NCBI GenBank assembly: GCA_000934665.2
Contig: JYFJ02004024.1
Span: 1-35,472 of the forward strand
From: Catajapyx aquilonaris
Taxonomy: Eukaryota
Length of the DNA stretch: 35,472 nt
Reading direction: 5' to 3'
The notes under the pieces were generated by a model. It saw only the letters and a list, made by a program, of their open reading frames with translations, was not told the DNA's origin and ran no database searches. Of this stretch, positions 3,259-28,279 are shown one piece after another. Position numbers and translations under genes: made by a program. Positions within the stretch are counted from its first letter, which is position 1. Every line of letters begins with the position of its first letter.

Positions 3259-5354
3259 CCTGAAACTCTGTGCCATCATCTGGATAGCCACCCACAGCTC
3301 CCTGGATCACTGAAGGTGTTAAATCCAGTCTGGCCACATCATCAGAATGCTTCTTGAACCAATTCTGGACCTGCTGATGAAACTGCACTAGCCTGCTGGA
3401 ATTTCCCATCGTGATAAAGCAGTGCCATGAGCTGTGTTCACCCTGCCTCACGACAACACCTGGCCATTTGTTTAAACAGTTCCATGTTGCTATCCCGTGA
3501 CTTTTGGCACTTGAGTGTATATAGGGTCTTGCATAACAATGGATTGCACATGTTAATGGTTTCACCTGATTTGATTTAGCATTTTTGTTGCTTTCAGATT
3601 TCTTTCCCCTGCAGGAAGAGCAGCAGTGATTTTGCAGCACCATTGTCGCCAGAGGAGGATGCCCATAACGAGATATTCCTGCTGGTCAGTATCACGAGAA
3701 ATCAAGGTCTCAATGCAGTTGCATGGATTTGAGTTTGCTCCTGTGCAATGTTGACTAGTGAGAAGTATTACCTGACAGCAATAAAATGACATTATTCTGA
3801 ATGTATCTGCTTTCTCTGGGAAAATGGGGGGGGAACCTTTTGTGCTGAGCTCCAAGTCTTTGCCTTTACAGCAGACTGAGCAGATTTCCACTTAATCAGT
3901 TCTTCTGCAGGAGTCTTAAAAATCTGCAACTTGACCCTTATCAGCTTTGGCATATCTCGTTGGACAAGGATGAGACAGTGTAAATTAAGCTGTTTTTTTT
4001 GGCGTTACGTATGGATGGGAAATAAGCCAATATCAGGGTACTAGACTAATTCTGCGCAAAAAGTTATGATTTTAATTTCCATGTAATTGCATTGCCCTTT
4101 TTCTGATTATTTATGTTTTTGAATTGACATTTTTAATTGTTTGTTCTCTTTTCAGTGCAAGTAATTCGCAGCCTGCTGAGATGGTGCCATCCTGCAAGAA
4201 ATGATCATCCATATTTTCGCCTGCTTTCTCCTGTTTCCAGTAATTTGCAGCCCAGATGGTGCCAGTCAGGAGCACCATACCGCCTTTAACCCCCTACAAA
4301 CCTCCCCTTTTTTGGCATCATGTGCTAACACTTCTTGGCACATGATGTTGAAGAGAGGAAGATTTACCGCCTGCATTTAGGCTCCTCCCCCTTCGACGTC
4401 ATGTGCCAAGTGCATGACGTCAAGGGAGGAGGGGAAACTTGCAGGCTGAAAAATCGTAGTTTTAGTCGTCGGAAAAAAAAGACCGGGGTCGTCTGGGCGT
4501 AATTTCGGGCGGCCCCGGCCACCCCTGCATTCGCAAAGTCCGCTGGCGCGGAGCCTAGCTTAATGACCCCTCCCCTTTTTTCTGTAAACTTTTTTCAGAG
4601 TCCACTGATTGTCTCTCATTCGTTCACTCCAGTGCCTTGGCCCATCCCCCCTCTGCCTGCTGATGGTAGGGGTGAGTGAGGCTTGGATGGATGTGGGTGC
4701 ACGTACTGGGCAATGTAAGTTATGTTTCCCTCCTGCCCCTATCCTCCCAGGGCAANCCCCCCCCCCCCCCCCATCGTCCAAAGCCCCTCTCCCTGGCCAT
4801 CAGTAGGCGGAGGGAGGAGAGGCAACGATGCACTGTTTCTTTATTTCTTACAGCCGATATACATTGTACAAAAATCGCAATAAAGATGTTGACAATAATA
4901 GTTCTGACTGCTGCTTTTTTTTCCAGGATGTTCAAGTAACTTGTATGTTAGGCTGCTTGATCCTTTCCAGGCTGTGTGCAATAAAGGTGTGCACAATAAT
5001 AGTTACTCTTCTGATTGCTACTCCATCTTTTACAGGATGCCCAACAATCTAAAAAGGATAACAATGATTAAAAGACTTATAATATTTTAGGAGGATGAAT
5101 TAAGAGCTATTAAAATTTCATCCAATGAATTTTACTGGAAATACAGAAGGCTACACATGTAACTTATTATTGACATTAAAAACTCCAGCATTTTTGCCAC
5201 ATCCTGCACTTGCCATAAACAATTTCAACATAATAACTTCTGCAGGGGGAATAAAAAGCAATGGATCCAGGTATGACTACGATTGAATTAGGAGCAATGG
5301 CCTATGATTACTGAAAAACACATTGGATGTGTCAGCCACCTTCATATAGTTACT

Positions 5355-6660
5355 TTTTAATTGCCATTAAGGGAGCAACGAAGAAAAGGGGCAAGTCGAA
5401 AGGGGGGATAGTGGTGGAGCTGAACATTGAAAAAAAGGAAGTGGAAGATGCAGATGGGTGGGGGAAGGAACTAGAAACGATGAGGACAGAAGATGAGGGG
5501 AATGATGTGTGTGTGGGGACTTTAATGGTAGAATTGGACATGAGGGCACCATTGGAGAAATGGAAGGAACAGAGAAGATCTGAGGACGCCACATCAACAG
5601 AGAGGTTGCTAGATAACTGGGCAATGTGGGGTATGGTGGTAGCTAATGGGAGGACAAAGGGGAAGGTAACCTATATTGGTGCGACGGGGAAATCGGTAAT
5701 AGATTATGTAGTGACTGACAAAGATGCATGAGCTGAAATAATAGACATGACGGTAGGGACGAGAATTGAGTTGGATCACCAGCCATTGGAGGTGACCCAC
5801 AATCGGGTGGGGGGGAAGACACACAAAAGGGAAGTACAGCGGCCGAAGGAGGAAGGGGGTGAGGTGTAAGTGGGCCGAGGCATACAGGACACGGCTAAGA
5901 GAAAATAGCAAGAAGAGAAGGGTGGATTGGTTTGACGAGGAATGTAAGGAAAAAAGAGGAAGTATGGAAGAGGTTCAGGGCTTTTAAAAGAACGGGGACT
6001 GAGGAAGACACAGTAGAATATGTTGCTCAAAGGAAAGATTACCACAAATTATGTGAGGAGAAGAAGGGCAGGAACTCAAATAATGGAAAGTTAAGTGAGA
6101 ACGGAAGGTGAAATGTGGGAAAGACTCAGGGGGAAAATCAAGGACAGGTCCATCACGGAAGAGGAAAGGACAGAGCATTTTGTGGGGGTGCTGGGAGGGG
6201 AGTTGGAAAAAACGATGGTAGAAATCCCGGGAGGCAGAGGGGAACAGGTGGCAGGAAGGTGGGATGCTGACATAACTGAGAAGGAGATAACAGACTGCAT
6301 GAGGAGACTGAAAAAGAGGAAAGCACCAGGGATGGATGGGCATCCAAATGAGATTTTGAATAATGGAGGGGAAGTGGTGGTTAAAGAAATCAAGGACGGA
6401 GCTGTTCCTGAAAATTTGGGAAAGTGAGAGAATACCATATGTATGGAAAGAAGCATGGTTGTGGCCCATCCACAAAAGTGGGGAGAGAGGAATGGCGTAA
6501 GGGAAGAAGTACCATGGACAATACATTTATACTGAACTCATTGGTGCAGCATAGACTCAGTAAGAGGAGGGGGAAACTTTATGCACTATTCGTCAACCCC
6601 ACTCAAGGCAGCGTTTGACTCCGTGGACAGGGTTAAGCTCATGGAGAAACTGTGGATTTT
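5355..6660 (+). mobile_element. Degenerate non-LTR retrotransposon fragment (APE endonuclease C-terminal half plus N-terminal RT), with stops, frameshifts and deletions
   Basis: Endonuclease motifs NGRTKG..TYIG..GKSVIDYVV...DHQPL. RT-region motifs ITEKEI...LKKRKAPGMDGHPNEIL, WKEAWLWPIHK, RKGRSTMDNTFILNSLV, LYALFV/KAAFDSVDR. Confidence 0.9.
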
Positions 6661-8854
6661 CATGGTAATGATTTCTTTGGCATAATAATTTTCAAAAGGC
6701 AAAAGGAAAATAATTTTCAAACAAGGTACTGTAATTATCAGGCACAGTGAATACAATATATTCATTGCAGCATAAAAATTTAGCATCAAGAGACATTTTT
6801 CCATGATTATTATGACCAACACTGTTACAAGGTAAGTACAAGTGTGTAATACTTACCATGTCCATGTCTGGTCTGCCAGGATAGTAGATGGCAAGTGAAG
6901 GGTTGAGGCATATCTGATGATGACAGCACCTCGCATCGCTTGATTCCACAAGTTGATTAGGATGAGGCCAAAGTGGTTGCTGGTTTGGCAGAAACAGGCA
7001 GGTGATGTCCAGAGACCAATCAGATGCATCGTCATTCTGTAAGGTGTAATGAGTACAGGTCACACGACTGTCATTGAGAGTGCTACGTACTAATACTAAG
7101 TTGCATTGCCACACAATCAAGTATTTTGTCTCAGAAATTTTGAATGACATTAGTAGACTACAATTTCCACCAAGATATGCTAGCAATATGATAGGCGGCA
7201 GGTTCACACCATTGCGATTGTGACGATTTCAAAGTGAATGTAGAGCACATGAACAAAGCACATCAAACAGTACCATAATAAATTATTGGTGATTAGCATG
7301 GTGCCTATCTATGGAGAGACGCGGAAAGGCAAGTACGGTACATAGGATGGTAGGATTAACACAGGCACATTAACACATGCACATTTCAAATCCTGATAAT
7401 TATTCGCAACTCAAGAAGCAGATTGGAGGAATACGCATCATCTTAATAACATCACTTGTACGCAGTGTAAATGATTTTTGAGCAAAGTCGAAATCATTAA
7501 AATTATTTTGCACCCACATTTTACTTGCATACTTGGCTATTCAATTATTCTGAGTGTGGAGCATCCTACTGTGAGTTTATTGTTTAACAATAATTATTAC
7601 GGCTCAAGACATAAACTCACCATCAATATTAATTGCAGTTACATCCAAGGTCGTTGAGCATCAGCATGACGACATCTGTTCTTGTCCAGGGTTCCTTTGG
7701 TGACCAATCTGACTGTCGTGCTGGCAGTTCACTAGTCTGGTGTCCAAGGTGGTGTGTGTATCCAGCAGCATACCACAAACCAATTCTACATAATAAATAA
7801 AGCATATTAGAAACCTGTGACTTAATTTGCCCCAATTTGACTGGGCTCAGTGGTATACATCATATGACCAATTAGCAGGCTCTTAATGTACTTTATGAAC
7901 TTCAGAAATGTTGCTCTAAGTCCTATTTATTACATACACATACCTATCGGTTGATGTGCAGTTGCTGTGAAGGTCTTATTGTCACACGTCCCCAGGCAGG
8001 CTACCAGCACATCACTCTCCTCCTTTCCAGGTCACGAAATGGTTGCCATTGTGGTGCAATCACTCACCCACCAACCCCCTCAGGACATCATGTGGACGAC
8101 TTATGGCCCAATGGTGCCAACAAAAGTGGGTGGTTTGACCTTGAATAAATTCGAAAGGACCTTCACCAGTTGACTGCAAAAAAAACAACAACAACACATT
8201 ATCCTGGAAGTCAAGCTTCCTACATCGCAACCTAGTTTGAAGGGTTGCCCTGAAGGATGACTATTACTCACCGATGAATAAATTAATCTCAAATTAATTA
8301 CAACTGAAGTACAACTTGCTTCTTTTAGTCCTTCCAAAACAACGAAATGATGAAAATAATGTAGGTCGAGCTTATCTTCTTTGTACTTATCCTAAGAAAG
8401 GTAAAGCCACCCCTTGTGTAAATCAAGTACCGGTAGTACTAGGTTTTGCCAGGTAATAGTCTCTGACAATCAAGAATATGGGTTCAAGGGCTGGTACCTA
8501 CATGCACTAGAAGATATCGAGTGGGACTGCCTATGCAATGAAACATACATGAACACATGAATTTAATACAATTTAACTGAAGCAGTCTGTGTTTACCTTT
8601 TAAACTTTGTAAGTTTAAGTAACAACAATTAATATCCATCAAAATAACCCATTAAAATCCGCGATATTAAAATGTGCTATTGATACTTTAGTAGTATTAC
8701 AAAAAGCATATTTTATTTTTTATTACATAAAATGTTTACATAAACACGGCCAGAAATGACCCAACTGCACTAGTTGAAGTATGCCCTACCGCAGCATCAA
8801 CATTTTCAGATCAGCAACTTTGCAGGAAGCTTCAATTTAAATCGCAATATTTAT

Positions 8855-10991
8855 CTACAGTGTAAAATATATCGCAATGATGAATAAACTGAGATATAAG
8901 CAATGAATGGAAGATGCAGAACTTTTTGAAGGAAAGCTGCTAAAATTGATGGCATAATTATTATTGTTATCTATTGATTTTGCTATCCCAATTCGGTTCA
9001 ACCTCATGTCAAAGGTGCAGTAATATGCCCCAATAAATACGTCACCAAGGATCCACTCTGGTCCATCACTGTACTCGGATGGTGTGAAGCCAGACACACA
9101 CTCGCCTCTATCCTCATACTGAAAAAGACAACGTCAAATTAACCGCAGGCTTGTTGCATTCCTTTCAACGGCAAGGTTAGAAATAAATAACTTACCTTCA
9201 GTACATAATCCTTGCTTGTAAGAGTAAAAGCGTAGCTGCCAAACACAAAAACTATTGGCGGAAGTGAATCAACAATCCTGCAGTCCACCTGAAAATATCA
9301 CATCATGTATACAAATTCTGGTAACTATTGCAGTTGAATCCGGATATAACAGACTTCAAGGGAGAGCGAAAATCAGTCTGCCGAGGCTGTTATATCTGGA
9401 TTCAACTGTACCGGTATATAAACTTCCGCAGCATATTGCATGATATGTGTCTGTTATATCTTCAGAATATTGTACCTTGAGCCACTTTTCTATTGCACTA
9501 CAAGTTTTGCGACGTAATGAAAAAACTCACTTCATGGAAAGCCCATGTTCACACTTAATACACACCATGTGCAAGCCTGTGTTGGGATCTTCTTTTGCAT
9601 TAAGCAGATGGTTTAGCCTCTCTACATCTTCACTTGGCCCAATGATAAGACTGGTTCCTGTATCGATTATAACTTCACATCCACTCCTGCATGAAAATTC
9701 TTCACCGTTGAACACTAGTCGGTCCATATGAACCTGCCAGTAACCCTGCCTGGTGACAGGAAGGTAGGCAAATTCACCAGTGTAGTAATTGGGATCTGTT
9801 CCTCCCAAAATCAGTTGCCCACCAGGAGATCCATACAAGTTTCTACGGAGCCAAAGCGTGAAGAATTATTTCATGGTTAGGAGATACATGCCATGGGCGG
9901 CAGTCAAAGCCAATCAGCCAATGCAAAGGTTCACCACACCTGTTGAGATAAAACGAGAAAATGGGTTCATCCACAGCATTCTGTTGCATCATGGCAAGGA
10001 AAACTGGTAGCACTCCACTTTTAGACAGGGACGGATATCCCATTCCCAAGATGCCGTCAAAATATGTGTTCCTGAAGGAATTTCCTCCGGTGAAGTTTAT
10101 CTCGGCAAAGGTTTGTTGGGAAACTGTAATGCCTGCAACCTGAAATTGTACAATTCACTCGTTATTGCATAAAGTGCGTAACTTTATTTAAACCCAATAC
10201 TTACACTAATGTCATCCGTGGATAGAAATCCACTGGCAGGTCCTGAAATATAATTAATGCTAAATCTATGTCCATTGGCTCTATATGAACTGGATTTGGC
10301 TCCATCATAAAGTCGATGAGATGCTGAAATTTCCCAGAAAATAGTAGAAATATGGTAAAAACATGCTTTGCTTTGATGTCACCGGAATGAAAGAAACTCA
10401 CAGCAGCTGTAGTCGCTCTGAAGGCATTTTGAAGAATACACCCATGTGTCTGATGATCCAGTGTCAAAAATCACATTAAACTCTTGAGGAGGATTGCCAA
10501 TTTTTATGGGACCAACATACTGGGCCTGCAATTATAAAGCCAACTGTGTGCAAGTTCCTGACAAATGGTGCTTGCCACTTACGTTTCCATAATTCTTGAG
10601 AGGGTTAACCACCGCACCTCCCACATAGATGTAGTCATGCCTCTTCAATGGAATACCTTCCTCGTGAGCAATCTGTGCTTCTGATTTGATCTTCGTTAGT
10701 GGAATCCTGTTTTAAAATGTTTACCAGTAAGAGTTTTCGGTTTTGAGGCAATAATTTGATGACATACAGTGTTGGAACATTAATCGACTCGTACTGCTAG
10801 TGACATTTTCTGAAGCGGCAGAAGAACGAATCTTGCTTGCACGGCTTGCACTATCCATATCTTCGATTCGTTCTTCTGCCGCTTCAGAAAATGTCGCTAG
10901 CAGTTTGACTCGATTAATGTCCAACACTATACCTGACTAATCCAGTGGCAAATGCAATGAGGCAGAGAAGCAGCACAAGCACATGTGACAT
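8855..10991 (-). CDS. Gene A: cathepsin D-like A1 aspartic protease with predicted GPI-anchor tail, 8 exons, 419 aa
   Basis: Exons (minus strand): 10933-10991, 10583-10706, 10402-10525, 10205-10323, 9940-10139, 9566-9842, 9196-9288, 8855-9118. All GT-AG, phases compatible, 1260 nt. Signal peptide [69 protein letters not shown] at 8712-8724. Confidence 0.93.
9331..9408. mobile_element. Short palindromic Tc1/mariner-pogo-type MITE in gene A intron 6; related copies at about 31041-31110 and 32023-32108
   Basis: TIRs cagttgaatccggatataacag / ctgttatatctggattcaactg(ta). The same gatataacagacttcaagg core recurs at 32023-32108 and, inverted, near 31041-31110. Confidence 0.75.
10767..10929. mobile_element. 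Palindromic MITE with TA target duplication in gene A intron 1
   Basis: ta|cagtgttggaacattaatcga...gacattttctgaagcggcagaagaacgaatc / gattcgttcttctgccgcttcagaaaatgtc...tcgattaatgtccaacacta|ta. Second family member at 28074-28223. Confidence 0.88.
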
Positions 10992-11039
10992 TTTCAAGCC
11001 CTGTGTCTTTACCTGCACTGAGAATATTTCAGACTTTCA

Positions 11040-11155
11040 CATATCACAAGCCCTCTTATCACCTCCCTATCTCACTAAAGGTATCTATCACTGAAGCCCT
11101 GTCTGCCGTAAGAATCTGTATAAATAGAGGTCAATATAAGATAAGGGGAGTATCA
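11040..11155 (-). promoter_or_regulatory. GATA-motif cluster in the proximal upstream region of gene A
   Basis: WGATAR matches at 11056-11061, 11067-11072, 11085-11090 and 11139-11144, 65-155 bp upstream of the ATG. Confidence 0.45.
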
Positions 11156-11849
11156 AACACATTTCTCACAGTGGCTGCAAGTTCCAGCAGCTCATCATTT
11201 CACTGAACTTCAGAAAGCGATCATCTAGTTACTAGTATCAGTTGGGTGGTCAGCTCCCAAGGGAGTCAGACTGACTGTGGCGCTGGATAGTGCCAGTTTA
11301 TTAAACTCTTGTAAGGGTTGGTTGACACAATACGTGCTTACAATATTTGGATGAGTTAATTCTGGGTGCACACGACTGGCTATGGCTTGTTGGTAGTGAA
11401 CGAAATGGAGTTATGAGTGCTCAGCTTATCACTTGTCTAAACTATAAAGTAATCATTTCAGGTACTAATCTATAGTCAACGGACAACTAAGAAAGCACTT
11501 CTAGAACTTCCCATTTTTAAGCATCTCGCGAAAACAAAAGAAGCCCGTTTCCTCCTTTTGTTGTGTGAAAGCATTTACATGAAAATTTTTAAAAAGGTGT
11601 TTTCTCAGATAATTTGGTACATGAAACGATTATGTCAAATGAAAGTTAGGCTGAGTCCGCTGTAGCAATGAGTTTGTTTACAGGACGTTCTACATTGGCA
11701 ATTTGACAGTGGCTAACTGCTACTGCTACTTATCTGTTGAAGCTGCAAGTATATCATCTGAATCAGGTGTCATACTCGCAGCTATGTACCAAAATCGTGT
11801 GGATAATTAATCTTGGTCCTCACTGAAGTAATAAGTTGAGGTCATCTTT

Positions 11850-12410
11850 TTATTTGGCATCAGCAAGACGAGCAATACCAACCTGGTTGTTTGCGAAGTC
11901 AAAGATGGAGTAGCATCTTCCAATGAAGGCATCTCCAAGGATCCACAGAGGGCCCATTGGTGGTGGAATATCGATTCCCGTGAATCCAGACAGACAAATG
12001 GTGCATCCAATGGCACTCAGCTTCAGAGCATAGTCGGTGGGGCCAATGGAGACATCCTTATCTCCGAGGGAAAAGGTGACATTGGGCATTGTCGGCAGGT
12101 TGTCACAGTTGATGTACCACTTGGGTCTGACGATGTGGGTGGCACCCATGGCCTTGTTGATGGCTTTGACTTTGGCAGTTGGGCCAGCGATGACACTGGT
12201 GCCAGTGTCTACGATCATGGCACAGCCTTACTGGCAGCCAATTGCACTATCGCCAACCTGTGTGAAGAAAGGCATAAAATTACAAATGTGCATCAGGCAT
12301 TACTTTAAAAGCATAACATTCAGCAAAGGAATAACAAAAGTTTCCAAAGCCAAAGTTCAAAAACATTTATAGCCTTACATTTTTTAGCAACTAAATTATA
12401 GAGAAATTCA
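11850..12410 (-). pseudogene. Orphan duplicate of the cathepsin D terminal exon (11850-12257) plus about 150 bp of preceding intron, with an in-frame stop
   Basis: Aligns with 13884-14430 including the intron and acceptor (cacacag|gttggcgat). Reads [20 protein letters not shown]...[19 protein letters not shown] at 12228-12230 replaces GAA. No upstream exons found between 12410 and 13880. Confidence 0.88.
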
Positions 12411-13883
12411 CAAAAATATCTTGCACTCTAACAGAATAGATGAGGTAGACGACCATAGTCTTCACATGGTGGAGTGCTATAATATTTTCATATTACAATA
12501 AGCTAGTGAAAACCTTTTCCAAATTAATCAACAAGCAATGTCCATCTCTTTAACAAAGTATAACATGAACACTTACTTGACATGTGCCTGACAGCTGACG
12601 ACCCAGGCCAAGATGATAGCCAGGCAAGCCTTCATTTTCATGCCATGGTCGGGCTTCCGCTAACCTTCGAGTTGGTTAGTGAGAGGGAAGCTCTTTTAGA
12701 TTGTTGTCCAGGTTACCTCTTCTTCAAGACTGTCAGGTTCGGATATCAGGGCGACGCAGTTGCCTGCTGGCCCTGATATCGTCTGCCTAGTCAGTGTATG
12801 TATGGGCGAAGCAGATGCCTGCTGGCCCAACCATCACCCTTTATTTTATGAAGGTTATCAGATTTTTCGTGGATCTGTTCTTTTCATCTAGGACGTAACA
12901 TGGAAGATGTTGACCAAGATGTTGACAATACTTGAGTCTCCATTTTTTTACAGGGCTGAGAAAACGGTTGCACTTGATCTGGCTAACACCTGTAATTGTA
13001 GACATTGTACAGTACACACAGACACATGGGTACAAATTTGTTTGCAAAGTACAGTATCATGCATCTGGGGAGGTCAAGCTCCTCTTTGGCAATTTACACG
13101 TCAGATTCTGGCTTATAGAAAGACAGCAAACATTATGCAAGCACTATATTTACAGCATACTGTTAATGCACATTGCACAAGTTATACTGCACATGTTACT
13201 GTAACATGCATGTAATTGTATATGAATCAATAGAAATACAATGAATAAGAAACAAATCCCCAACACTTTGTGGCAAATGGGACAACTGCTCCGAGTTCTA
13301 AAATTGATTGCAAAGAATTAGTATACAGTAATTGAGTCCTTCTTCCTCGAAAATAACTTTTGCCCGGACTGCTCAGCTGTCTTATCACTCTATAAACATT
13401 ACTTCATGAGGAGCATTCAAGCTATTTGAAGAGAAATATCTTGTGAACACAGTAAGTCACCCCTTTGTTTTGTGATAGCATGCAATGGAGGAGAGCAGAG
13501 GTGAATCCCCTCAGGTCATTACACTTCCACCTTTGAGATATATAGTTTGATATTCAGATTCAATTCAGATCTTTCACAGGTTTCCTTTTAGATTCTCTCT
13601 TTTCCGCACTGTTGCTAAATCAAGTTTTTCCAACCCCAATATTACTTGGCTCATTCCAATACTTTCAGTGAATTACATAACTCACTTTGCGACATATGTA
13701 AATTGATAGCATTTACTGGATGTGCGAAAAGTCAAGTCAGATACATGTGATTGGAATTCGTATCCTTGTTTGTGCTATTATTTAGCATGTGAAAGAAGGA
13801 AAATAATACATCACTTGTTTGTTAGTGCGATGAGTACTTTATTGGCATGCAGTTGTTAGTAGCATTGAGTTGAGGTCACCTTT

Positions 13884-15636
<1,753 letters not shown>

Positions 15637-16461
15637 TGTCGTGGCTGATGAAAACTGGACAACGGGGCTTCCTTGTGATCCTCCTGCTTTTATTCAAGGC
15701 TACTCTTGACTTCTGACCCCACACTTCAGAGTATCAGGTGACTGGAAAAACATTAGTCAAGAGTTATATCAGTCCGTAGTGGCTATCAGAAGATTATATC
15801 CCTTCACCTTGTCAGTGATTTCTCCTTCATTCATTATCTCCTGAGATTTCAGCACTTGAAAGGCAAGGCCAACATGTCAAATTTGACATTGACAATGCAT
15901 TATCTTCATTTTTTTTTTATATCATTGAGAAAGCAGTTGCACCCAATCTGTCCAGCACCTGTAACTGTACTCGTTGTATAATACACACATTGGAGACAAA
16001 ATTATTTGCACAGTCCAGTATCGTACATCTTCTCAGGTCACGCTTCTTTTTTGCAACCCCTTACATAAGCAAATGACAGGCTCAGGATTCAACAGAACAA
16101 CTGGTCTACAAGCATAATTCACAGCAGAAGGTACCCACACCATTATTTACCACCAAGTTGCCATTATTACAATTCCATTCATGCCATTACAAATATTGTA
16201 CAGTAAAGCCTGCCCATTACGTACCCTGGGTATAGCGGAAGCCTATCCATTGCGGAATTTTTCCTGGGAACAGGCATATGTATAGGACATGTAATGTGTT
16301 TTTAGACGGATATTACAGAACCTGTCCAATGCAGAAACGGAGAGGATTTTTGTCTCCCTTCAGAAAAATCTATGTCCATAATGATGCGAGTCACAGCAAT
16401 AGAAACTACAGACGGTTCTGCCTCTGAGTAACCATTTTTGGACAGTCCTTTCACCATACTA

Positions 16462-16822
16462 ATAATAATATAATAATAATAATATAATAATTGTGGGTAA
16501 TGCTTTCACCCCTTCCGGGGTATCGCATGAACCTTTATTTTATTTTCCAATTTTTCTTTTAACTTCCACTCCGGTGCAAGGAATCAAGGAATTTGGGTAA
16601 GGATAGGGATTTTTCGGGGAGGGAACATGGGTGCAAGGTGCAATGTCATAGCTATGGGTCATGTGCTGTTCCCCAGGAGGTTAGGTTGCCAGACACCTCC
16701 TTGGTGCAGGTCAGAGACCCTCCCGACGCAGGTGAAAGGAAAGTTCCCCAGGCGGGGATCGAACCCGGGGCCTTTCACTCAGCAAGCCGTGACGTTACCA
16801 TCACGGCCACCACACCTCCCCG
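16462..16822 (-). mobile_element. Complete tRNA-derived SINE with (ATT)n tail and 14-bp TSD
   Basis: Minus-strand head has A box tggccgtgatgg and B box ggttcgatccc. Tail is (aat)n at 16461-16490 on the plus strand. TSD ctttcaccatacta at 16448-16461 and 16823-16836. Confidence 0.92.
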
Positions 16823-18615
16823 CTTTCACCATACTATGTCTCCAATTTCTGGAATTCCTATCAGCCTTAAAGATATTGAGATGAAAGGGGACTATTTTTG
16901 GTTGGCAAGAAGATGGTGGGCTAAGTTTAGTTCACGGTTCAGTCCAGTTTTAAAATGTCGGGGAAGAGGAAGGCGTGGACAAAGGACCCCCTCCCCTGGT
17001 ATGACGCTTAAAAATTTCATTTTTCTTCTGTGTTCTCGCCTTTGTTTTGTTTGATTTGATTTAAAATATATATATATATATATTCTATCTTGCAGCCGCC
17101 CCTAGGCAATTCCCTGCTCTGCCTAATCGTAAATCTGTCGCTGGCTAATCAGGAGTCATTATGAAATATCCTAGAAAAGATAACACTGTAATACAGTAAG
17201 ATTTCATATCTTATTAGATGCGGAAAAGTCTTTTTATCTGACATTAATTCCAGTGACCTATATTTATAAGCAATGTTTCACCGGTTTGTAAAGATGAGTA
17301 AGATCAATACGTGCTGCCATGTAATGGTCCTCCTGATCACAAAACAGTGCCGATTCCTTAAGATATTTTGCACACAGGTGTTTGCATAGCTTCAAGAATT
17401 AAGTCGCATTAAAAATTAAACAGCAGAACCCTGCCTGTAACAGCAAATATTAACAAAGCTGACTGATCATGCAAATCCTAGATGTCCTCTTCTACTTAAG
17501 ACACAATTCATCAAACTATCCTGGTAAATATTACTTGCTTGCTGTAATCCTCATCATTAGAATTTGCCCTTTATATTTTCCCCTCTCCAGTGAAAATGTG
17601 CATATTTGACCATATGTGATGAAGAGAATTGTATTGTGGGAAGCTTTCCCTCTCTTGTTACTTGATTTGTGAATGATCACTTTCTAGAAGTTGTCTTCAT
17701 CATGCAAAGCCCTCTTGATGTGAACATATTCCGCATGTTCATCCATCATGAGCAGGGAAGTGATCAACACCCCTCAATTATTCCATTTGAAATATGGAAT
17801 GCTCAATAATCGATTTCATTTCCATATTTCAAGTTTACTAGATCATCAGCTGAGAAAATACTGGACTATGCTGATGCAAGGCTGAGAGAGAAGCACTGAT
17901 TTACACATCTGCAAAAACTGACAGCAAGGCCCCTTGTGTTTGCAATACTTCCTTGTAGGTTACTGCCATCCTTCTAATGTGATGCAATTAAAATATAATG
18001 TGACAATACTGTAGTACAAAGGGTAACGTGTTATGTAACATAGCAACTGCATCAAGTACCATTGACTAGTTACAATCTTTCACTTCGGCAAGTGATATCA
18101 GGTAGGTCTATAGTGAAAAACGAAGTATGGATATCACATTCCTGATTCATCTTCATCCAACTACTATAAAAGCTATCTTCCTTGTTGCTTCCCCTACAAA
18201 GTTCCTTCATGGTCATGAATTTGGGTGATATAAGCCATTGTGCTGCAATGCACAACTAATGTATCTGCAACTGGGACCATGCCTGAATGCCAAAAATTAG
18301 GTCAAGGTCAAGAATATAATTAATAAATAATAATTGGCTGGCTCGTGATAGGCCCGCTGGAGCCTTTTAGGGGATCATCTGTTATTTACCTGACTTTAGT
18401 CATTGTCTGCTCTATGATGGTGTTTGTATTAGTTAACATTGCCATTTCCTGACAATGGTTCTAACCAGTTAATTTGAATTTATTTTCTTCATACAGATAG
18501 TGAAACCGATCATATTCATCTTCCTGACAGCTGATAACATTTGTGAATGATGCTAAATCTCATAATCCATGCACACAGTAAGAACATGTACAGCCTTACA
18601 TAACTTGACAAGTTT

Positions 18616-18777
18616 CCGCATTTGATGGCATACAAGACACACGGGCATGTAAGACGGACCCCCCATTCTAACCGCAGATCATATTCTGGAAAAAAAGCCT
18701 TTATTGTATTTTCGCATGTAATTTTTTAGCCATCTTTTGGGGAAAAAAGTGAGTCATATATGCCATCAAATACAGTA
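18616..18777. mobile_element. Degenerate pogo/Tigger-like MITE just downstream of gene C
   Basis: Terminal inverted match ccgcatttgatggcata / tatgccatcaaatacagta. Confidence 0.6.
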
Positions 18778-18890
18778 ATTGCCTAAACCCGTTTAACAAA
18801 TCCTCTCTTTTATAACGTACAGTACTTATACATATGTTAGTAATGATGAAATAGGTGTTAGGTAATATCTTTTATTAGTATTGGTGCTTA

Positions 18891-21039
18891 TCACTTGGCC
18901 TCAGCCAACCCAACCTGTGCATTTCCATAGTCAAATACAGTGTAGAACTTTCTGATAAAGGCATCACCCAACCTCCACATTGGGTTTGTATCGTCACACA
19001 TAAATATAGGTGTGCATGTATTAAATATCCCACCAGATTGCTGCAAAAACAAAATGCTTTAGTAACTGATCAATTATTTTAAAAGCATACAGTACATACC
19101 GAAATGTAATCATTTCCCTGCATAACAATGGCATGCTCGCCAAAGTGAAAGTCCAGCTTCGGTAGGTCAGGGATGCGGCTGCAGTCCACAGTCCACTTGC
19201 CAGTGAGAATATTCTGTGTTGCTCCTATTTTGTGATAAATGGACGTAATATCGTCTTTGTGCCCAGATACATAGGCATAGCTTGTCTGAAACGTGGCGTT
19301 GCAGCCATTCGTGCATGCAGCAGGATTTCCACCCACCATGACGCTAACATAGGTGAGAAAAATCTTTAAGTACAAAATGTAGTACATGTAATGTACGTGA
19401 CAAGACCCAAGACCAAAATTATCCTTCCTTTTCTTACGCCATCAATTAAAAGTTCTTCTATTGTACATGAATAATGATGAAATTGAATATTTCAGTACCT
19501 GCTTAGTTCAACTTGCCACTTTGCCTTCTTGTTCACGGGTATGTAGGTAATGTTGCCGTTGTAATGGTTGGCATCAGCTCCACCCAAAGTCAATACGCCA
19601 CCTGGTGCTTTTTTCGGGTCCCTGACAAAGCAAGCATAGATATCAAAATAATGCATAAACTGTGTAATTCTTAAGAGTGTCAAGATTAAGAAAGGCATCT
19701 GAAATAGCGCCTTACATATCAAAAAATTCAACCAATATGCAATGAAGAATGTAAATTTTCCAACGAAAAATAAAACAAAATTCAATGAAAGAGAATGTGA
19801 CAGAGACGTTGATAAGGCAGGCTTCTTGTCTCAATATTGGCACTGCATTGCAATAACATTTGTAAACATTTCTATTATGCAGACTTACTTGCTCATATAG
19901 AAGGCAAATACAGGCTTGTCAATCAATTTGTCGGCAATCATTTGACTGAAGATGGTGGGGAGCCCAGAAGCTGAAGCTTCGTTAAATGCCATTCCTACAA
20001 CGGCATCACACTTAAATGATCCAAATGGTGTCATTGGCGTAGTTGTCATCTCTGCGAAAGTGTACTTCTTTGTTGCCACGTTAGAAATCTGTACAAAGAG
20101 GAAAAGAAGTGTCAATCAATTCAGGACATGCCTTTGAAAGACAGAAGAGAGGTTTAAATATTACAAACAAGGCAGATCTCGATTCTATTTCAAGAAACGA
20201 TATGTATAAACCATTAGTTGGTGCATTATTATGCTGTAAACACAATTAAATAATGTACCCTTTTGGTAAATGTATGCAAATAAATAATGAGGAATGCTGA
20301 ATTCATAGACTCACTGTGATGTCATCAGTGGAAAGGAATCCTGCCACATGGCCTCCAAGTAAGTCGACATCATAGTTGGTACCATTCACTTTGTAGGTAG
20401 ATGATTTACTGTTGTCATACCGAGCATGTGCTCCTAAAAATTATTGAAATAAAATTATTGCTTGCATTGCACAATTATAGCCCTAACACTTACTGCAAGG
20501 ATAAGCCAAAATGCCACACTTCTCGGAGTAGACAACAGTATCCGCAAACCCTGTGTGAAAAAAGGCCTGGAATATCTGTCCAGGAGTCCCAATGCTAATA
20601 GGTCCATAATATTGCAACTGTAATTAACACGCGAATCAGGAACAGTGTTCATGAATAGTGACCCTAGCAGTGACTTACGTTATCATAATCCGTAAGGGTC
20701 TCATCCGCTGGACCTGTTTTCAGCTTACCCAGGGGAATCCTAGAATGAAACATTAAAATCAACAATATTGTAAGCACACAAAAACCCTATCAACCAATTA
20801 AGTCTGAAAATGAGGTCATTCACTACAACAGCAGGTCGTAACGCAATAAGTGAAGGTTACGTAAGTTTCTAAATGCAAACCTTGTTTTCTAAATCAATAC
20901 TTATAGATTCATTCAAAAAAAAAATGACAGTAGTAAAAAACTTCTAATAAAATCTAACACAAATTAATGAAAATTTCACTCACTCCAACAGAGCGTTGCA
21001 TGTGGCTATTGCCACCAGGAAGAGTGCGACAGACTTCAT
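18891..21039 (-). CDS. Gene C: cathepsin D-like pseudoprotease (both catalytic Asp replaced), 8 exons, 358 aa
   Basis: Exons: 20984-21039, 20679-20739, 20494-20617, 20315-20433, 19889-20088, 19499-19621, 19100-19343, 18891-19040. All GT-AG, 1077 nt, no stops. Signal peptide [89 protein letters not shown] at 18871-18876. Confidence 0.92.
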
Positions 21040-21083
21040 TATTAGTGTGGTGGTGACACTCACAGAAAAAGTTTTCGGGGGCC

Positions 21084-21101
21084 CTATATATGAGCAGATA
21101 G
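21084..21101 (-). promoter_or_regulatory. Probable TATA box of gene C with adjacent GATA motif
   Basis: Minus-strand TATATAG at 21084-21090, about 50 bp upstream of the ATG at 21039. AGATAG at 21096-21101. Confidence 0.55.
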
Positions 21102-21473
21102 GAAGTAATCAAACGCTCTTGAACATGTACTCGAAGTTACGCAACCAAGAACGAAGGTAAGAGTTAAACTGCGTATCTGTGGTGACCTCAAGTCCAAAAT
21201 AGTTATCTAATCAAGAAGAAAACACTTACTCTCCCGCTAAGTGTGTGTGCCAGACAGCAAGACAAGAAAAGGGTACGATATTTTCATCAAGTGCAGTTAT
21301 GAACAATGCTCTAATGCTTTGAAAGACAAAATGGCGTTCAAATTTTGGTCCTTGGACTGATCCACAAGGATATGGAAGTTTGGGTTGCGGCTGATGAAAG
21401 CCAATAATTTTCCAGCTGTGGATGTGGGCTTGAGAGCCAAATAATTTAAACATGTGAAATGCAATATTGTATC

Positions 21474-21789
21474 CACTGTAAACTGCAAAACATTAAAAGA
21501 GCATCACTGCTAATGGCCGGTTTTCATAAAAATCCCGGTTCTTTAGGAAAATCCCTATTCTATTTGCAGGGATTTTCCGAAAGAACCGGGTTTTTTATGA
21601 AAACCGGGCTTGGTGAAACCGGCCATAAGTCTCTCATGGAGCATCGATTTTTACTGCTCTTCTAATGCTCCGCTAATCCTCTTGTGATGCTTTTAGCAGA
21701 AAAAAATGCACCACAGGAGCATAAGAAGAGCATTAAAAATTGATGTTCCATGAGAGACTCACCAGTTTAATGTTTTGTAGTTTACAGTG
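21474..21789. mobile_element. Nested MITEs: outer palindrome containing a PIF/Harbinger (Tourist-like) MITE at 21514-21625
   Basis: Outer TIRs cactgtaaactgcaaaacattaaa / tttaatgttttgtagtttacagtg, with inner arms at 21629-21671 and 21716-21759. The inserted element tggccggttt...aaaccggcca is flanked by TAA at 21511-21513 and 21626-21628 and is itself palindromic. Confidence 0.85.
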
Positions 21790-22117
21790 TATGTAACTGT
21801 CTTTTAAATGTTAAAATGTCTTTCCTCTCCCCGCCAGTGTGTCATATTACTATGAATTCTTTAGAAACTCCAGCGGAGGCTACAATGTCCTATCAGCAGT
21901 CAATTGCAATGATCACGCCATCAGTGACGCACATACCTGCGATGCGTGACATGTGACCATTCCCCATTTCCAAAATGACAATTAAAACATTTTAAATCAA
22001 AATCATCATGTTGCGTTATTATTTACATGTGAATGTTGCTGATGTTTGTGGAAAGCCATGCTAAAGTTGACGTCATGGTGTTTTTTGCATCATTATTCGA
22101 ATACAAATGTCACTATA

Positions 22118-22543
22118 CAGGGTGTATATCTGAACTCAGTGCCCCGACGTATATGACTGCCTTCCTAGCCACCAGAGGATCGATTTAAGTATAGGAGTCC
22201 TATGTCTGGGCAGCCCCATTACTGAGATACACTCTTTAGCGATTTTTGCCTAATCGCTCCTTCTGACTTTTAAATAGAATTTTCTGGTGTAACTAGCCAA
22301 AGAGGCCTTACCACCTGTGGGCAACAAACCAACAAAGTCCCGCCCCCAGACCTTCCAGAGCCTTCTGACTGGGGGAGGGTTCGATGGGTGGCCTAACCGA
22401 CAGGATATTTTGTACTACATGTTTGCGGCCAATTATCTCCGCAATGAGGCTGCCCAGACATATGATTCCTATACTTAAATCGATCCTCTGGTGGCTAGGA
22501 AGGCAGTCATATACGTCGGGGCACTGAGTTCAGATACACCCTG
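22118..22543. mobile_element. Tc1/mariner-type MITE, about 110-bp near-perfect TIRs, TA TSD
   Basis: ta|cagggtgtatatctgaactcagtgccccgacgtatatgactgcc... / ...ggcagtcatatacgtcggggcactgagttcagatacaccctg|ta. Confidence 0.92.
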
Positions 22544-22782
22544 TATAACTCGAGGCAGCATTTCCTTGAATCATCTGTAATATTGTGAGCCACACAATGT
22601 TAAAGGTATTGCACAATCTATATCAAATATAAAGTTAAGCAAAAATAGACTCCCCAACACTTCATCTGTTGTTGCATCAATGTATGATTATAAAGATGAA
22701 GTGCTAAATGATTGCAGAGAATATTTTTGCTGCAGTCAGCAAAATGATAAGGACAGATGCGTTAATTGTTTTGTGGATTACA

Positions 22783-23498
22783 AAAGCAAACCCCCTTACC
22801 ATCCAGCCGGAAACGGTTTGGTTGAAAGATTTAACAAAACGTTGGTCGACATACTTAGTCTTTATGTCGACAACAACCAGCTCAATTGGGACAGAAACCT
22901 TCCTCTAGTTCTAATGGCGTACAGGGGTGCCATTCAGGAGTCAACAGGGGAGACTCCTTTCTTCCTAAACCATGGTCGAAACATTGTCTTCCCGTTTGAC
23001 GACATAATAAAACGTTATCTCCAGTCCCCTGGTAACAACTTCACTGAAAATCTTGTGAAAACTCTCCAAAATTCGTACCATGTTGTAAAAGACAGGATTC
23101 ACAAAGCTTTTCTACGACAGAAAAAATCACATGATCGTGGGTTTCGTCCAAAACACTTACGTCAAGGCGATATGGTACTAATTCACAAGCCCCAGTACAA
23201 AAAAGGACTCAGTCGAAAATTCCATCAGACTTGGCATGGTCCTTACAGAATCTTGAACCGTAAAAGCCCTGTTATTTTTGAACTTCAAAAACCAGGCCAG
23301 ATCGGTTCGTTCACGATTCACAGAGATCGACTTAGAAAATATTTTCCCTCAACTCCTTTTCCTACAATGGACATTCCATGTGTGGACACTCAAACTACAT
23401 CACAAACATTCTCAAAGCCAGTCCATACCAATGCCTCCTCCTACAATCTTCGTCCAAACCCATACCCCGCAGGGTTTTACAGTCAGTTTTTCAAATAA
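22783..23498 (+). CDS. Gypsy integrase fragment (catalytic Glu region and GPY/F module)
   Basis: Part of ORF 22680-23498. Recognisable homology starts at about SKPPYHP; the zinc finger and first two DDE aspartates are missing. Confidence 0.88.
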
Positions 23499-23723
23499 TT
23501 ATGAGTACTGCATTGTCGAAATTACGTGTAAACAACATTGACAGAATGGTAACCAGTCCATTGTCAAAATTCACTCAACCAATTTCTTTGACAACATGTG
23601 TAATTAAAGAGGCTGTGTTGTATCCTTAACAACCTAGTTGGCTGTTTTCAAACATTGTTGTCAGTTCTGTTCCAAAATAATATAGAACAGACACCCTCTG
23701 AGAAATTTTCTCTCATATTCATA

Positions 23724-24329
23724 ATGGGGAAGGGGGAAAAGAAGAAAGGTCCAAGGGGGGGTATCAACCAGTACCGGCCCTACGCTCCACCACCACTGTT
23801 GAGCCTGTTGTCTAGTCCACCACCTCAACCGCTACCGGTGATAGAAGACGTTCCGACCCTGGCAGATGAAGGTTCACAGTCACCATACTACCTTCCGTTG
23901 TCGCCCACGCAGTTAAACAACTCTAACTGGAAAAAGTTGCACAACGAATTGGTAGAAGCCTTTCCGGGAATACTGTCTCCCATACCAGAAGCAGAAGGTG
24001 AGCCTAAATCCAGCGGGTATGATGCGCTGGTGCCAGCAATAGATTGGACCACACCCATGGAGGTGGAATTAGATCTTCCAAAAAAGATCTCCAGAGATTT
24101 CACTCACCAGATGATCTACGACCACGTGACCTCAACATGCGGTCCAGTGGATGACTTGTTGGCTGGTGTGGCAGCCAACCAGGTCATCCATTCCAGGCCA
24201 TCCATTGGCCATGGAATAATAACCTATGGTCCAGGGAACCTCATAGCACCTCCGTGCTACAGGAGGAAAAGAAGAAGGAACTGTTCCCCGGAACATTCTT
24301 TAAAACGTTCCTCACCACCACCAACGTAG
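23724..24329 (+). CDS. Extra ORF of unknown function between Gypsy pol and the 3' LTR (201 aa from ATG)
   Basis: Open frame MGKGEKKKGPRGG...PPPLLSLLSSPPPQP...RRKRRRN...SSPPPT. Proline-rich with basic clusters; no signal peptide or TM segment visible. Confidence 0.55.
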   Translation: MGKGEKKKGPRGGINQYRPYAPPPLLSLLSSPPPQPLPVIEDVPTLADEGSQSPYYLPLSPTQLNNSNWKKLHNELVEAFPGILSPIPEAEGEPKSSGYDALVPAIDWTTPMEVELDLPKKISRDFTHQMIYDHVTSTCGPVDDLLAGVAANQVIHSRPSIGHGIITYGPGNLIAPPCYRRKRRRNCSPEHSLKRSSPPPT

Positions 24330-24370
24330 ATATTGGCGGGGGTAGCATCATCACCACCGACAGGAAGCCG

Positions 24371-24430
24371 GAGGACATCATCCCGGAGGACATCATCACA
24401 GAGGACATCATCACAGAGGACATCATCACC
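24371..24430 (+). repeat. 15-bp tandem repeat x4 (gaggacatcatcaca)
   Basis: Directly visible; reads (EDIIT)n in ORF 24254-24508. Confidence 0.95.
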
Positions 24431-24560
24431 GACGATTGGAACATGGAAGACGTCGTCTCTGGTGACCTCAACCCGGAGGACTTGATGTTTTCACCAGATC
24501 ATCTCTAAAAAAAAGTGGCAGCCCTGTTGGACTACCTCTTTTTTGCAAGAAAGAGAGCAA

Positions 24561-25229
24561 TGTGATGTGTATCTTATATAATGTACTTGTTGTTTTCAGT
24601 TACCATCTTTTGTTACGTACTTGTTGATTTCAGTTACCATCTTTTGTTATGTACTTGGTTACCTAGGGTTGTTATGTCAATTTCTGTTCCTAGGACCGTT
24701 ACGCTGGTGACCTAACAAATATGTAAACTAACAGAGGTGTTAAATAAAAGTGCCGAGGCCATGTGTGGCAGTCAGACTGGAGACAGCGTCGAGAGAGGGT
24801 CTCCCCTCCTGTTGACTGCGACGAACTGGTCTTCGCTCGAAAATCCAAATGTTGGTCGTTAGTAATTGGCGTACCGGTACAGGTAATGGTACCACTGGTT
24901 GAACGGTTGGTCGCAGGCATCTGCACCACTGACTATTCAGCAAGTGGTAGGGGGATATCCGTACCGCAGGCATCTGCACCGTACGGACTATCCTTCCGGA
25001 CCGTATACCATCTTACTACTCAGTGTGACGGTCAGACCGCAGGCATCTGCACCGTTTGACCGTTGTGCTGCAGTAGGAGGCGTACCTATTGGGTGATACT
25101 AAAAGCGCTTCCCTCTCACTGACCGTACGCGGTTGGCGGAAGCCCGGACCGGGTCCGGACGGTGTACAGCAAGCCGTCCGCGTACCTCCCTGTGACGTAA
25201 ATGTGAGTCACCCTGAACCTGGCGTCACA
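24561..25229 (+). repeat. Long terminal repeat (669 bp)
   Basis: Starts tgtgatg after the PPT and ends cgtcaca (inverted termini). AATAAA near 24744. Internal repeats: gtacttgttg.tttcagttaccatcttttgtta (2-3 copies) and cgcaggcatctgcacc (3 copies). Confidence 0.85.
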
Positions 25230-25439
25230 CTAATATTATACTGAATGCAATCATTTATCAGAACAGCTAAATCTCATAATCCATGCACGCAGTATGAACA
25301 TATATATACAGTAAAACTTCTGTAAGTCGAAGTTCTCTAGAAGTATAGCCTTACATAACTTGACAAGTACCGTCCAAGTACCGTGCAACAGAAGCATCAT
25401 CATTTTAGTCCTCCATCCACATCAGCCACAAGTCATCCA

Positions 25440-26975: not shown

Positions 26976-26984
26976 ACGGGCGGA

Positions 26985-27395
26985 AAGGCAGAAAAACCGC
27001 TGGATTTACTCCAGCGTATGCGTTAAGTTTTCATGGTGGGAGAAAGACATTTCCAAGCAGCAAATGTCACATTTTTATGTCATAAGCATTTTTTGTATGT
27101 CACAATATGTCATACCCATTTTTTGTATGTCACAATATGTCATACCCATTTTTTGAATGTTACAATATGATATTTTAACGTACAAAAATGCATATGACAT
27201 ACAACAAATATGTGTGACATGAGAATGTGACATCCAAAAAATGGGCATGACATATTGTATCGTACAAAAATGCGTATGCATAAAAATGTGACGTTTGCGG
27301 TACACCCTGTATCGCGGGTGCTTGGAAATGTCATTCTGCCACCATGAAAACATGACGCATACGCTGGAGTTAAATCCAGCGGTTTTTTCTGCCTT
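26985..27395. mobile_element. Non-autonomous TIR element with internal 30-bp tandem repeats
   Basis: aaggcagaaaaaccgctggattt.actccagcgtatgcgt...gacatttccaagca is mirrored at 27319-27395. Internal repeat catttttttgtatgtcacaatatgtcatacc and inverted variants. Confidence 0.85.
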
Positions 27396-28073: not shown

Positions 28074-28223
28074 CAGTGTTGGACATAAATCGAGGCATGC
28101 TGCTAGCGACATTTTCCGAAGCGGCAGAAGGAGGAATCGAATATAAGGATAGTGCGAACCGAGCGAGCAAGATTCCTTATTCTGCCGCTTCGGAAAATGT
28201 CCCTAGCAGCATTTATGATACTG
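28074..28223. mobile_element. MITE, same family as 10767-10929, right end degenerate
   Basis: tacagtgttggacataaatcga...gcgacattttccgaagcggcagaa / ttctgccgcttcggaaaatgtccctagcagc. Confidence 0.82.
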
Positions 28224-28279
28224 TGGCTCACAACCTGCCAAACAAAAAAAAAAGGTAGTGGACTGAAACACCAATAATT

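Follow-up and report, generated by a model that had tools for sequence, protein, structure and literature searches.

The window analysed here, a stretch of 35,472 nucleotides of contig JYFJ02004024.1 from Catajapyx aquilonaris (assembly GCA_000934665.2), holds between positions 8855 and 21039 three intact genes of the pepsin family (A1), designated C, A and B, all on the minus strand. All of their introns are of the GT-AG type, none of the reading frames has an internal stop, and the Pfam domain Asp (PF00026) is matched on exons of each gene. A decayed fourth copy, D, which a previous sequence-only reading of this DNA did not mention, sits between A and B and has exons that match the same domain. 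The first four introns of A, B and C fall into identical alignment columns with identical phases (2, 0, 1, 0), exons 3 and 4 measure 124 and 119 nt in every gene, and intron 5 and a late phase-0 intron are common to B and C. The proteins have diverged strongly, with amino-acid identities of 44% (A/B), 39% (A/C) and 35% (B/C), and at four-fold sites the third bases match in 25/83, 18/65 and 18/54 cases, which is chance level. The description of a co-oriented, strongly diverged trio with four introns in common, given in the sequence-only reading, is thus borne out by alignment columns, phases and identities, and its labels for the three genes (canonical, anchored and dead) hold as predictions from the motifs, the C-terminal tail and the lost Asp residues. 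N-terminal hydrophobic stretches were seen by eye; the A1 propeptide has a weak match on exon 2 of A (E 0.0035, below the cut-off) and none on exon 2 of B or C. Two acidic, Lys/Glu-rich exons of a putative Df31-like neighbour have no Pfam match.

The three genes belong to a family of about two dozen, and the genome has 92 matches to the Asp domain on 14 contigs. Outside the window 24 paralogue windows were modelled, four of which (C5291b, C5291d, C668a and C5640) proved fragmentary or unreliable and were set aside, leaving 20 usable models; C5291d was retained for the promoter count alone, and late intron positions are approximate in the divergent models C270a, C9777, C5291a and C668b. C722 is BACE-like and has an unreliable 5' model.

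Run X1, judged to be RNA because its contigs skip introns exactly and one ends in poly(T), bridges four of the five introns of A, five of the seven introns of C (by one contig; introns 1 and 2 are not among the listed joints) and two of the seven introns of B (by one contig of depth 2.2). All three genes are spliced in this same run. The depths of the contigs (2604 for A, 522 for C and 2.2 for B) do not allow a ranking of the genes by expression, and the lack of cover over D does not indicate silence. A loose poly(T) end places poly(A) addition of A at ~13818.

Gene A (13884..15636, minus strand) has an open reading frame of 383 aa in six exons (15636-15578, 15459-15339, 15264-15141, 15078-14960, 14869-14540, 14282-13884) and is predicted to be a canonical cathepsin-D-like peptidase. 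As in cathepsin D (MEROPS A1A; PDB 5ux4, 1lya and 5n7n from a tick), both DTG motifs, the flap Tyr, six Cys, the polyproline loop and a prosegment are present, together with Trp39. The top matches in the PDB (E ~1e-36) and in the databases are cathepsin D, and identity to cathepsin D-like proteins reaches 60%. Its sequence makes A a likely soluble acid endopeptidase. However, A is not the cathepsin D orthologue of this genome; instead, C204, which lies on a short branch, groups with the cathepsin D of other animals. A branches outside this group as sister to the local expansion (90/88, not starred), and, unlike C204, has lost the introns at 208 and 249 and has a more acidic predicted pI. By sequence, A resembles cathepsin D in predicted function, yet is a paralogue rather than an orthologue.

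D (11850..12641, minus strand), recognized by its similarity to A, is a pseudogene, a dead duplicate of A. It retains the signal-peptide exon (12641-12577) and the end of the last intron with the last exon (12257-11850), contains an in-frame TAA and lacks exons 2-5, and its two remaining exons join out of frame. Identity to A is 87% over 589 nt and, in the upstream region, 72% over 174 nt; dN/dS is ~1.0 and dS ~0.14 over the last exon. Directly upstream of its start codon lies a dispersed repeat of ~190 bp (12649..12837): a genome search with the upstream region of D gave 36 matches, and ~20 other contigs match the repeat at 72-92%.

Gene B (8855..10991, minus strand; open reading frame of 419 aa) has eight exons (10991-10933, 10706-10583, 10525-10402, 10323-10205, 10139-9940, 9842-9566, 9288-9196, 9118-8855) and encodes a predicted A1 peptidase with both DTG motifs, the flap Tyr and Trp39, without a polyproline loop. 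Hydropathy and a rule-based check identified a GPI-signal-like C-terminal extension of 39 aa (8858..8974, minus strand), with a polar spacer, the small-residue omega candidates S396-S399, a terminal hydrophobic stretch and no cytosolic tail. The rule, which is our own check rather than a trained predictor, asks for an N-terminal signal, small omega residues, a polar spacer, a terminal hydrophobic stretch and the absence of a cytosolic tail. B and 10 of the 20 other paralogue models pass it; the remaining ten fail, as do A and C. B is therefore likely, by prediction from its sequence, to be a GPI-anchored acid peptidase of the cell surface. Its closest kin are encoded on other contigs: B groups with C1558a, b, c, e and f and with C2894 (83/95), and its identity to C1558a, b, c and f reaches 53-56%, compared with 43% to A. 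Outside this genome no close relative of B was found among 27 hits at 44-61%, the named ones being mostly cathepsin D or lysosomal aspartic protease. In the ESM Atlas the top cluster for the last exon was A1, mostly from plants, at a recognition score below the threshold of the tool, which makes it a lead only.

GPI-anchored A1 proteases are known from fungi, where, according to the accessible parts of two reports, the yapsins form multigene families with 11 members in Candida glabrata (PMC8844688, PMC12387857). B and its ten tailed paralogues resemble these yapsins in combining an A1 domain with a C-terminal GPI-type signal, anchoring being predicted. Unlike yapsins, B descends from animal cathepsin D, as judged by shared introns and by its position in trees that contained no yapsin; an anchor would thus have been gained independently. 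We consider it quite probable that a family of at least 11 GPI-anchored surface proteases has evolved from cathepsin D in this animal, in parallel to the fungal yapsins. No description of GPI-tailed A1 genes in an animal was found in the literature, in which supplementary A1 tables of genome papers could hold similar tailed or dead ones, and nothing on GPI-anchored aspartic peptidases was found in the accessible part of PMC4398375.

Gene C (18891..21039, minus strand) is an intact open reading frame of 358 aa in eight exons (21039-20984, 20739-20679, 20617-20494, 20433-20315, 20088-19889, 19621-19499, 19343-19100, 19040-18891) and encodes a pseudoprotease of the pepsin family that is predicted to be secreted. 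A spliced aligner, with C itself in its profile, gave the same model, and exon 3 has a Pfam Asp match. In the alignment the catalytic Asp32 is replaced by His (codon 20555..20557, minus strand; HTG motif) and Asp215 by Gln (codon 19286..19288, minus strand; QTS motif), which aligns with the Asp of the second DTG in the solved cathepsin D 9hk2. Run X1 lists no differing letter at the Asp32 site, and the exon with the Asp215 site has no other letters relative to the X1 contig. Near His32, Ser35 is changed to Phe and Trp39 to Val; around Gln215, Gly217 is changed to Ser and Thr218 to Tyr; and the flap Tyr75 is Leu. The signature of active A1 enzymes (DTG in both lobes, Tyr75 and Trp39) is thus lost. 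Exon 2 (20679..20739, minus strand) aligns as 61 nt compared with 121-124 nt in A and B; the prosegment is ~20 residues shorter and retains the first strand alone, and the gap falls within one exon both ends of which are conserved. Altogether 59 of 103 cathepsin-D-invariant residues are retained, including all six Cys, and the cleft residues are lost; a polyproline loop is absent.

Could C still be an enzyme? The exchange of Asp32 for His is that of the histo-aspartic protease (HAP) of Plasmodium, and a single Asp suffices for activity in HAP and BYC, as far as the accessible parts of the sources go. A peptidase with altered, His-dependent chemistry is nevertheless very improbable, as Asp215 is kept in HAP and has been argued to be required (PMC11313796), whereas C has Gln and has also lost Gly217, Ser35, Trp39 and Tyr75. 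A HAP-like assignment, defined by His32 with a retained Asp215, was rejected on the identity of residue 215.

At the other extreme, C could be a transcribed pseudogene without function. Its branch, with 1.4-1.8 changes per site, is the longest of the trio, its placement in the tree being tentative, and no orthologue was found: a word-index search gave nine candidates, none at E<=0.01, HMMER against 1.84 billion representatives gave 117 hits with at most 42% identity where most of exon 7 was covered, and none of 305 pattern matches in metagenome contigs was confirmed. All of them had a single 81-aa exon as query and argue only weakly for absence. Against decay speak eight exons without stop or frameshift, whereas D, at a dS of only ~0.14, has by now acquired a stop and undergone a large deletion, as well as the six Cys, a GC3 of 0.46 compared with an intron GC of 0.31, and correct splicing. 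We give this explanation hardly any chance.

A fold kept in its defining residues around a dismantled cleft, combined with a short prosegment and a long branch, would also suit an inhibitor of a foreign enzyme in defence or diet, comparable to the pepsin-fold plant proteins TAXI and EDGP, or a decoy aimed at a protein of a parasite or of the food, with A and B as ordinary digestive enzymes. This is unlikely in our view: no sequence link to TAXI or EDGP was found, the best of 35 matches of C exon 7 among solved structures being cathepsin D and renin, and the single-exon searches gave no orthologue on which positive selection could be assessed. The cockroach protein Bla g 2, which retains its aspartates and binds zinc, is absent among these 35 matches. 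By analogy, C is likely a stand-alone secreted binding protein like RmPAP, a secreted A1 protein of a tick that lacks Asp215, is inactive and binds haemoglobin non-proteolytically, according to the accessible part of the report (PMC6345952). No orthology is implied, and RmPAP lacks only the second Asp, whereas in C both are gone, along with the flap Tyr and the greater part of the prosegment. C also resembles, as a predicted secreted and inactive arthropod A1 protein, the cockroach proteins Bla g 2, Per a 2 and Lma-p54, which are secreted and inactive and for which, in the part of PMC9541408 available to us, a function is not established.

WGATAR motifs were counted in the 300 bp upstream of the start codon, where the background mean is 0.66. 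There are three upstream of A (15637..15936), four upstream of B (10992..11291; three of these 3' of a TATA-like box) and two upstream of C (21040..21340; one immediately 5' of a TATA-like box), all regions being on the minus strand. GATA motifs upstream of all three genes, as pointed out before, are thus confirmed, and their total of nine has a P of 0.0011 for three random windows. An excess is also seen in the 15 further paralogues whose start could be mapped (22 motifs, P=0.002), and the five mapped C1558 genes have 12 motifs (P=0.0008). The enrichment is real yet family-wide, with the trio at its upper end. A shared gut-type promoter of A, B and C is plausible.

GATA factors drive fat-body and yolk genes too, and the cluster, or C alone, could serve yolk, gland secretion or cuticle instead of the gut, like BYC, Bla g 2 and Lma-p54. 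Inactive A1 proteins indeed occur in the tergal gland and cuticle of cockroaches (PMC9541408), and RmPAP is transcribed in the midgut and accumulates in the ovary (PMC6345952), in both cases according to the accessible parts of the reports. The products of A and of the soluble C1558 genes, however, are predicted to be acidic (pI 4.1-4.5), which fits acid digestion, and we see only a slim chance for such a role.

The sequence-only reading had proposed a dedicated three-way module, in which C binds A or B, their substrate or their inhibitors, and linkage and co-regulation are kept for that purpose. The linkage is old and has been kept despite saturated synonymous sites, which could reflect selection; nine upstream GATA motifs are reached by only 22 of 816 family trios (top 3%, tested after the fact); and all three genes are spliced in one run. 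C, predicted to be soluble, is single-copy and the only paralogue found with both Asp lost, so that this genome has no second trio of exactly this composition. What was put forward in favour of a module nevertheless does not hold up. The same first four introns are present in 10 of the 20 other paralogue models and the 124 + 119 nt exon pair in eight; literature on intron positions in the pepsin family was not found. A clade of A, B and C is rejected (AU test, p=0.0003) and one of B and C marginally so (p-AU 0.033), in a test on 24 rows with a quick tree and LG+G4 that was run after an earlier tree had been seen. The genes are not mutual closest relatives, and therefore not a locally triplicated cluster, and the clade of B lies mostly elsewhere. 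A similar mix is found on C1558, where six tandem genes comprise three soluble copies with intact motifs and three tailed ones, one with intact motifs, one with Asp32 changed to Ala and one with degenerate motifs; one catalytic Asp is missing in three of the 20 models. Asp-directed inhibitors and peptide substrates use Ser35, Thr218, the catalytic Asp and the flap Tyr, and C has Phe and Tyr for Ser35 and Thr218 and lacks the others. Its cleft, rebuilt with bulky residues, speaks against a role of C in offering substrates to the active copies or in acting as a decoy for their inhibitors. A dedicated module is improbable.

Still more doubtful is an extended version, in which the animal has at least 11 GPI-anchored surface proteases and C is a secreted, prosegment-less adaptor of the pepsin fold; docked on A or on an anchored enzyme of the B type, C would steer its choice of substrate or its activation. 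It is the adaptor part that brings the joint probability down. A pseudoenzyme-enzyme pair within the pepsin family was not found described in the literature.

We favour, as more probable than not, the view that the cluster is what remains of old tandem copying within an A1 expansion of about two dozen genes, with A, B and C acting independently in the same gut tissue. Since they are old family members and a similar mix exists elsewhere in the genome, side-by-side work in the gut is more likely than action as one unit, and birth-and-death evolution seems to have left the trio as a by-product. The expansion is likely lineage-specific and digestive, by analogy with that of Rhodnius prolixus, which in the accessible part of PMC5736985 is a lineage-specific, partly tandem gut expansion of secreted cathepsin-D-like enzymes, mostly without proline loop; unlike in the present family, all its full-length members have intact catalytic residues. 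The gut itself we infer solely from analogy and from promoter motifs, and one GATA motif is present at the lysosomal-type gene C204 too. A duplicate of cathepsin D would have given rise, by tandem copying, to A and a sister clade of 19 modelled genes, and later moves would have scattered members of this clade over contigs. GATA/TATA promoters would drive A, B and C in gut endoderm. The tail of B would be replaced by a GPI anchor, which would hold the enzyme on the apical membrane. C may have lost its autoinhibitory prosegment helices because no activity was left to restrain, and its rebuilt cleft or surface may bind a ligand other than A or B, as carrier or inhibitor.

Each of the parts has known counterparts: digestive A1 genes have expanded in tandem elsewhere, arthropods have inactive A1 proteins, and fungi have A1 proteases with a GPI anchor. 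C, whose gene is clean and spliced, has lost both catalytic Asp and part of its prosegment, and is a good test case for binding by pepsin-fold pseudoenzymes. The fresher point, compared with the trio itself, is the presence of 11 GPI-tailed A1 genes in one animal: about half of its A1 genes have GPI-type tails, which, if confirmed, would add a membrane-bound tier of acid proteases to arthropod digestion.

The window comprises the entire contig C2156 of an animal assembly of 285.6 Mb (20,583 contigs). Based on six-frame reading and coordinate-based exon modelling, three intact pepsin-family (A1) genes lie on the minus strand: first C (21039-18891), then A (15636-13884) and B (10991-8855). The exon models contain no internal stop codon, and every intron has GT-AG ends; the intron boundaries of A and C were reproduced by a spliced aligner, whose profile itself contained these proteins. 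Introns 1-4 have the same aligned position and phase in the three genes, each has a 124-nt exon 3 and a 119-nt exon 4, and pairwise identity is 35-44%. The anatomy described in the sequence-only reading, three co-oriented, strongly diverged paralogues with common early introns, is indeed confirmed. Four-fold sites match at 28-33% versus 167/179 (93%) in a young gene pair on contig C1558 and, therefore, the split is old. RNA-like contigs of sequencing run X1 (library type unrecorded) skip introns at the predicted ends (4/5 in A, 5/7 in C and 2/7 in B, the latter in a single contig of depth 2.2), so all three genes are spliced. One X1 contig bears poly(T) at 13818.

In protein A, both DTG motifs are present together with the flap Tyr and the polyproline loop; among solved structures, cathepsin Ds are the closest to it. 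Both DTG motifs and the flap Tyr are found in protein B too, which lacks the proline loop and carries a 39-residue C-terminal extension with a hydrophobic end and no cytosolic tail, which passed our rule-based GPI check. In protein C, Asp32 is replaced by His and Asp215 by Gln, the second verified against PDB 9hk2; the alignment revealed further changes (Ser35→Phe, Trp39→Val, Tyr75→Leu, Gly217→Ser, Thr218→Tyr; pepsin numbering) and a prosegment about 20 residues shorter. The labels canonical, anchored and dead, given to A, B and C before, thus fit at the level of motifs, with anchoring of B as a prediction. C keeps 59 of the 103 residues invariant across 18 cathepsin-D-type rows, including all six cysteines, and B keeps 85. 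That C, an intact and spliced gene, is a pseudogene is most improbable.

Across the whole assembly, PF00026 matched 92 times at exon level, on 14 contigs; 16 stretches were fetched, 24 windows modelled and 20 paralogues kept. The first four introns are common to 10/20 models, including the cathepsin D orthologue C204, and 8/20 have the exon pair of 124 and 119 nt; exons of these two sizes are also present in human cathepsin D. The common introns are, therefore, a family trait. Half of the models (10/20) passed the GPI rule, one catalytic Asp is missing from 3/20 (C1558e, C5291a, C668b), and the motifs are degenerate in a further two (C2894, C1558d). C1558 harbors six tandem A1 genes (15291-31563), a mixture of soluble and tailed genes with intact motifs and of tailed genes that are defective. 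Its three soluble genes, the young pair among them, have a very acidic predicted pI (4.1); of the three with predicted GPI tails, one has Asp32→Ala and one DTA/DTS motifs. More predicted GPI-tailed genes are on contigs C270, C5291, C9777, C850 (11 N-glycosylation sequons) and C2894. C5291a and C668b are a close pair, both with Asp215→Val. A divergent sister of the cathepsin D orthologue (C1194:38204-39650) has Pro/Gln-rich insertions and has lost most late introns (one 959-nt exon); it may be partly retro-processed. Specific to the window is C, which is single-copy in the genome and, unlike the other modelled paralogues, soluble with both aspartates lost.

In a careful tree of 39 rows, B and C fall into a single clade (97/99) of 19 genes of this genome, and A is the sister of that clade (90/88, unstarred). 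B groups with five C1558 genes and C2894 (83/95), with which it has its late introns in common; the placement of C, a long branch, is uncertain. A 24-row tree, which omits four long-branch models and 11/16 reference proteins, clusters the genome's cathepsin D with insect cathepsin D (96). Here, a constrained A+B+C clade was rejected (p-AU 0.0003), and with it local triplication as origin of the cluster; B+C was rejected marginally (0.033). The cluster may be what remains of the locus in which the expansion started.

Between A and B lies D, a dead duplicate. Its signal-peptide exon, directly adjoined upstream by a repeat, resembles that of A, exons 2-5 are missing, and the end of the last intron plus the last exon (12257-11850) share 87% identity with A and include an in-frame stop. 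Against A, dN/dS is ~1.0 (11 synonymous, 36 non-synonymous differences). The last exon differs from that of A (14282-13884) at 47 of about 366 nt, including several acidic-to-basic changes, which is more than in the adjoining intron part (12/164). Divergence of D may have begun while it was still functional, or its intron may have undergone conversion.

The window also contains retroelement remains at 22581-23498 (+), 25446-27030 (-) and about 5300-6700 (+), with an integrase C-terminal/SH3 region, RNase H and, from the ORF list, reverse-transcriptase-like fragments. Two minus-strand exons (29250-29450, 32514-32890), described before as a Df31-like gene, encode a low-complexity protein that is acidic, rich in Lys, Glu and Ala, and basic and NLS-like at one end; a Pfam match to them was not found. 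Of all models, B is the lowest in GC3 (0.40), and its introns 1 and 6 carry MITE-like inverted repeats (10777-10920, 9331-9408), resembled, by eye, by sequence at about 28080-28210 and 32030-32110.

GATA motifs upstream of all three genes, as claimed before, were found: nine WGATAR in 3 x 300 bp versus a background of 0.66 per 300 bp (P=0.0011). Of the other paralogues, 15 have a mapped start, and these carry 22 motifs (P=0.002); four of their models (C204, C1194, C2317b, C668b) begin a few codons off the ATG. In the five C1558 genes there are 12 motifs (P=0.0008). In C, C1558a-c and C535, a GATA site lies immediately 5' of a TATA box. The proposal that A, B and C form a dedicated, co-regulated module has a modest point in its favor, a GATA count within the top 22 of 816 possible paralogue trios. 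It is unsupported by the family-wide introns, the rejected clade, the mixed types on C1558 and the GATA excess elsewhere, and we consider it quite unlikely.

Dead A1 proteins are not rare: of 263 fetched proteins that cover the second site, 10 are without the Asp there, including a herring protein (Denticeps, P0194; both Asp lost), two bug proteins and a millipede protein. A hydrophobic C terminus is present in 9/265; in most of these it seems to stem from intron read-through in partial gene models, and that of one named fish protein, P0188, appears to be a genuine tail. Single-exon queries found no close relative of B or C outside this genome. Described inactive A1 proteins include the haemoglobin-binding RmPAP of a tick (PMC6345952) and Bla g 2, Per a 2 and Lma-p54 of cockroaches (PMC9541408); the plant xylanase inhibitor, 7S globulin and EDGP are dead pepsin folds (PMC11313796). 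C as an inhibitor of, or decoy for, foreign proteins is improbable, and His-dependent activity of C is extremely so; HAP is argued to require Asp215 (PMC11313796). Gut A1 genes are described as expanded in tandem in Rhodnius (PMC5736985) and yapsins as fungal GPI-anchored A1 proteases (PMC8844688, PMC12387857); titles and abstract starts of the matches listed, the top 25 of 62 and the top 15 of 99, with few subscription journals covered, described no animal GPI-anchored aspartic peptidase.

Altogether, the reading we favor, with some confidence, is that A would digest protein in soluble form in an acid gut compartment, B would do the same while tethered to the apical membrane, and C would be a secreted binder with a ligand of its own. 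Of this, the gene anatomy, the residue losses, the splicing and the family context are observed, and the tissue, anchoring, activity and ligand inferred. The GATA-driven tissue programme would be common to much of the A1 family and not private to the trio; a yolk or gland role, also considered before, is as unlikely as the module. The chief points of interest are the predicted GPI-tailed A1 family and the doubly dead C.
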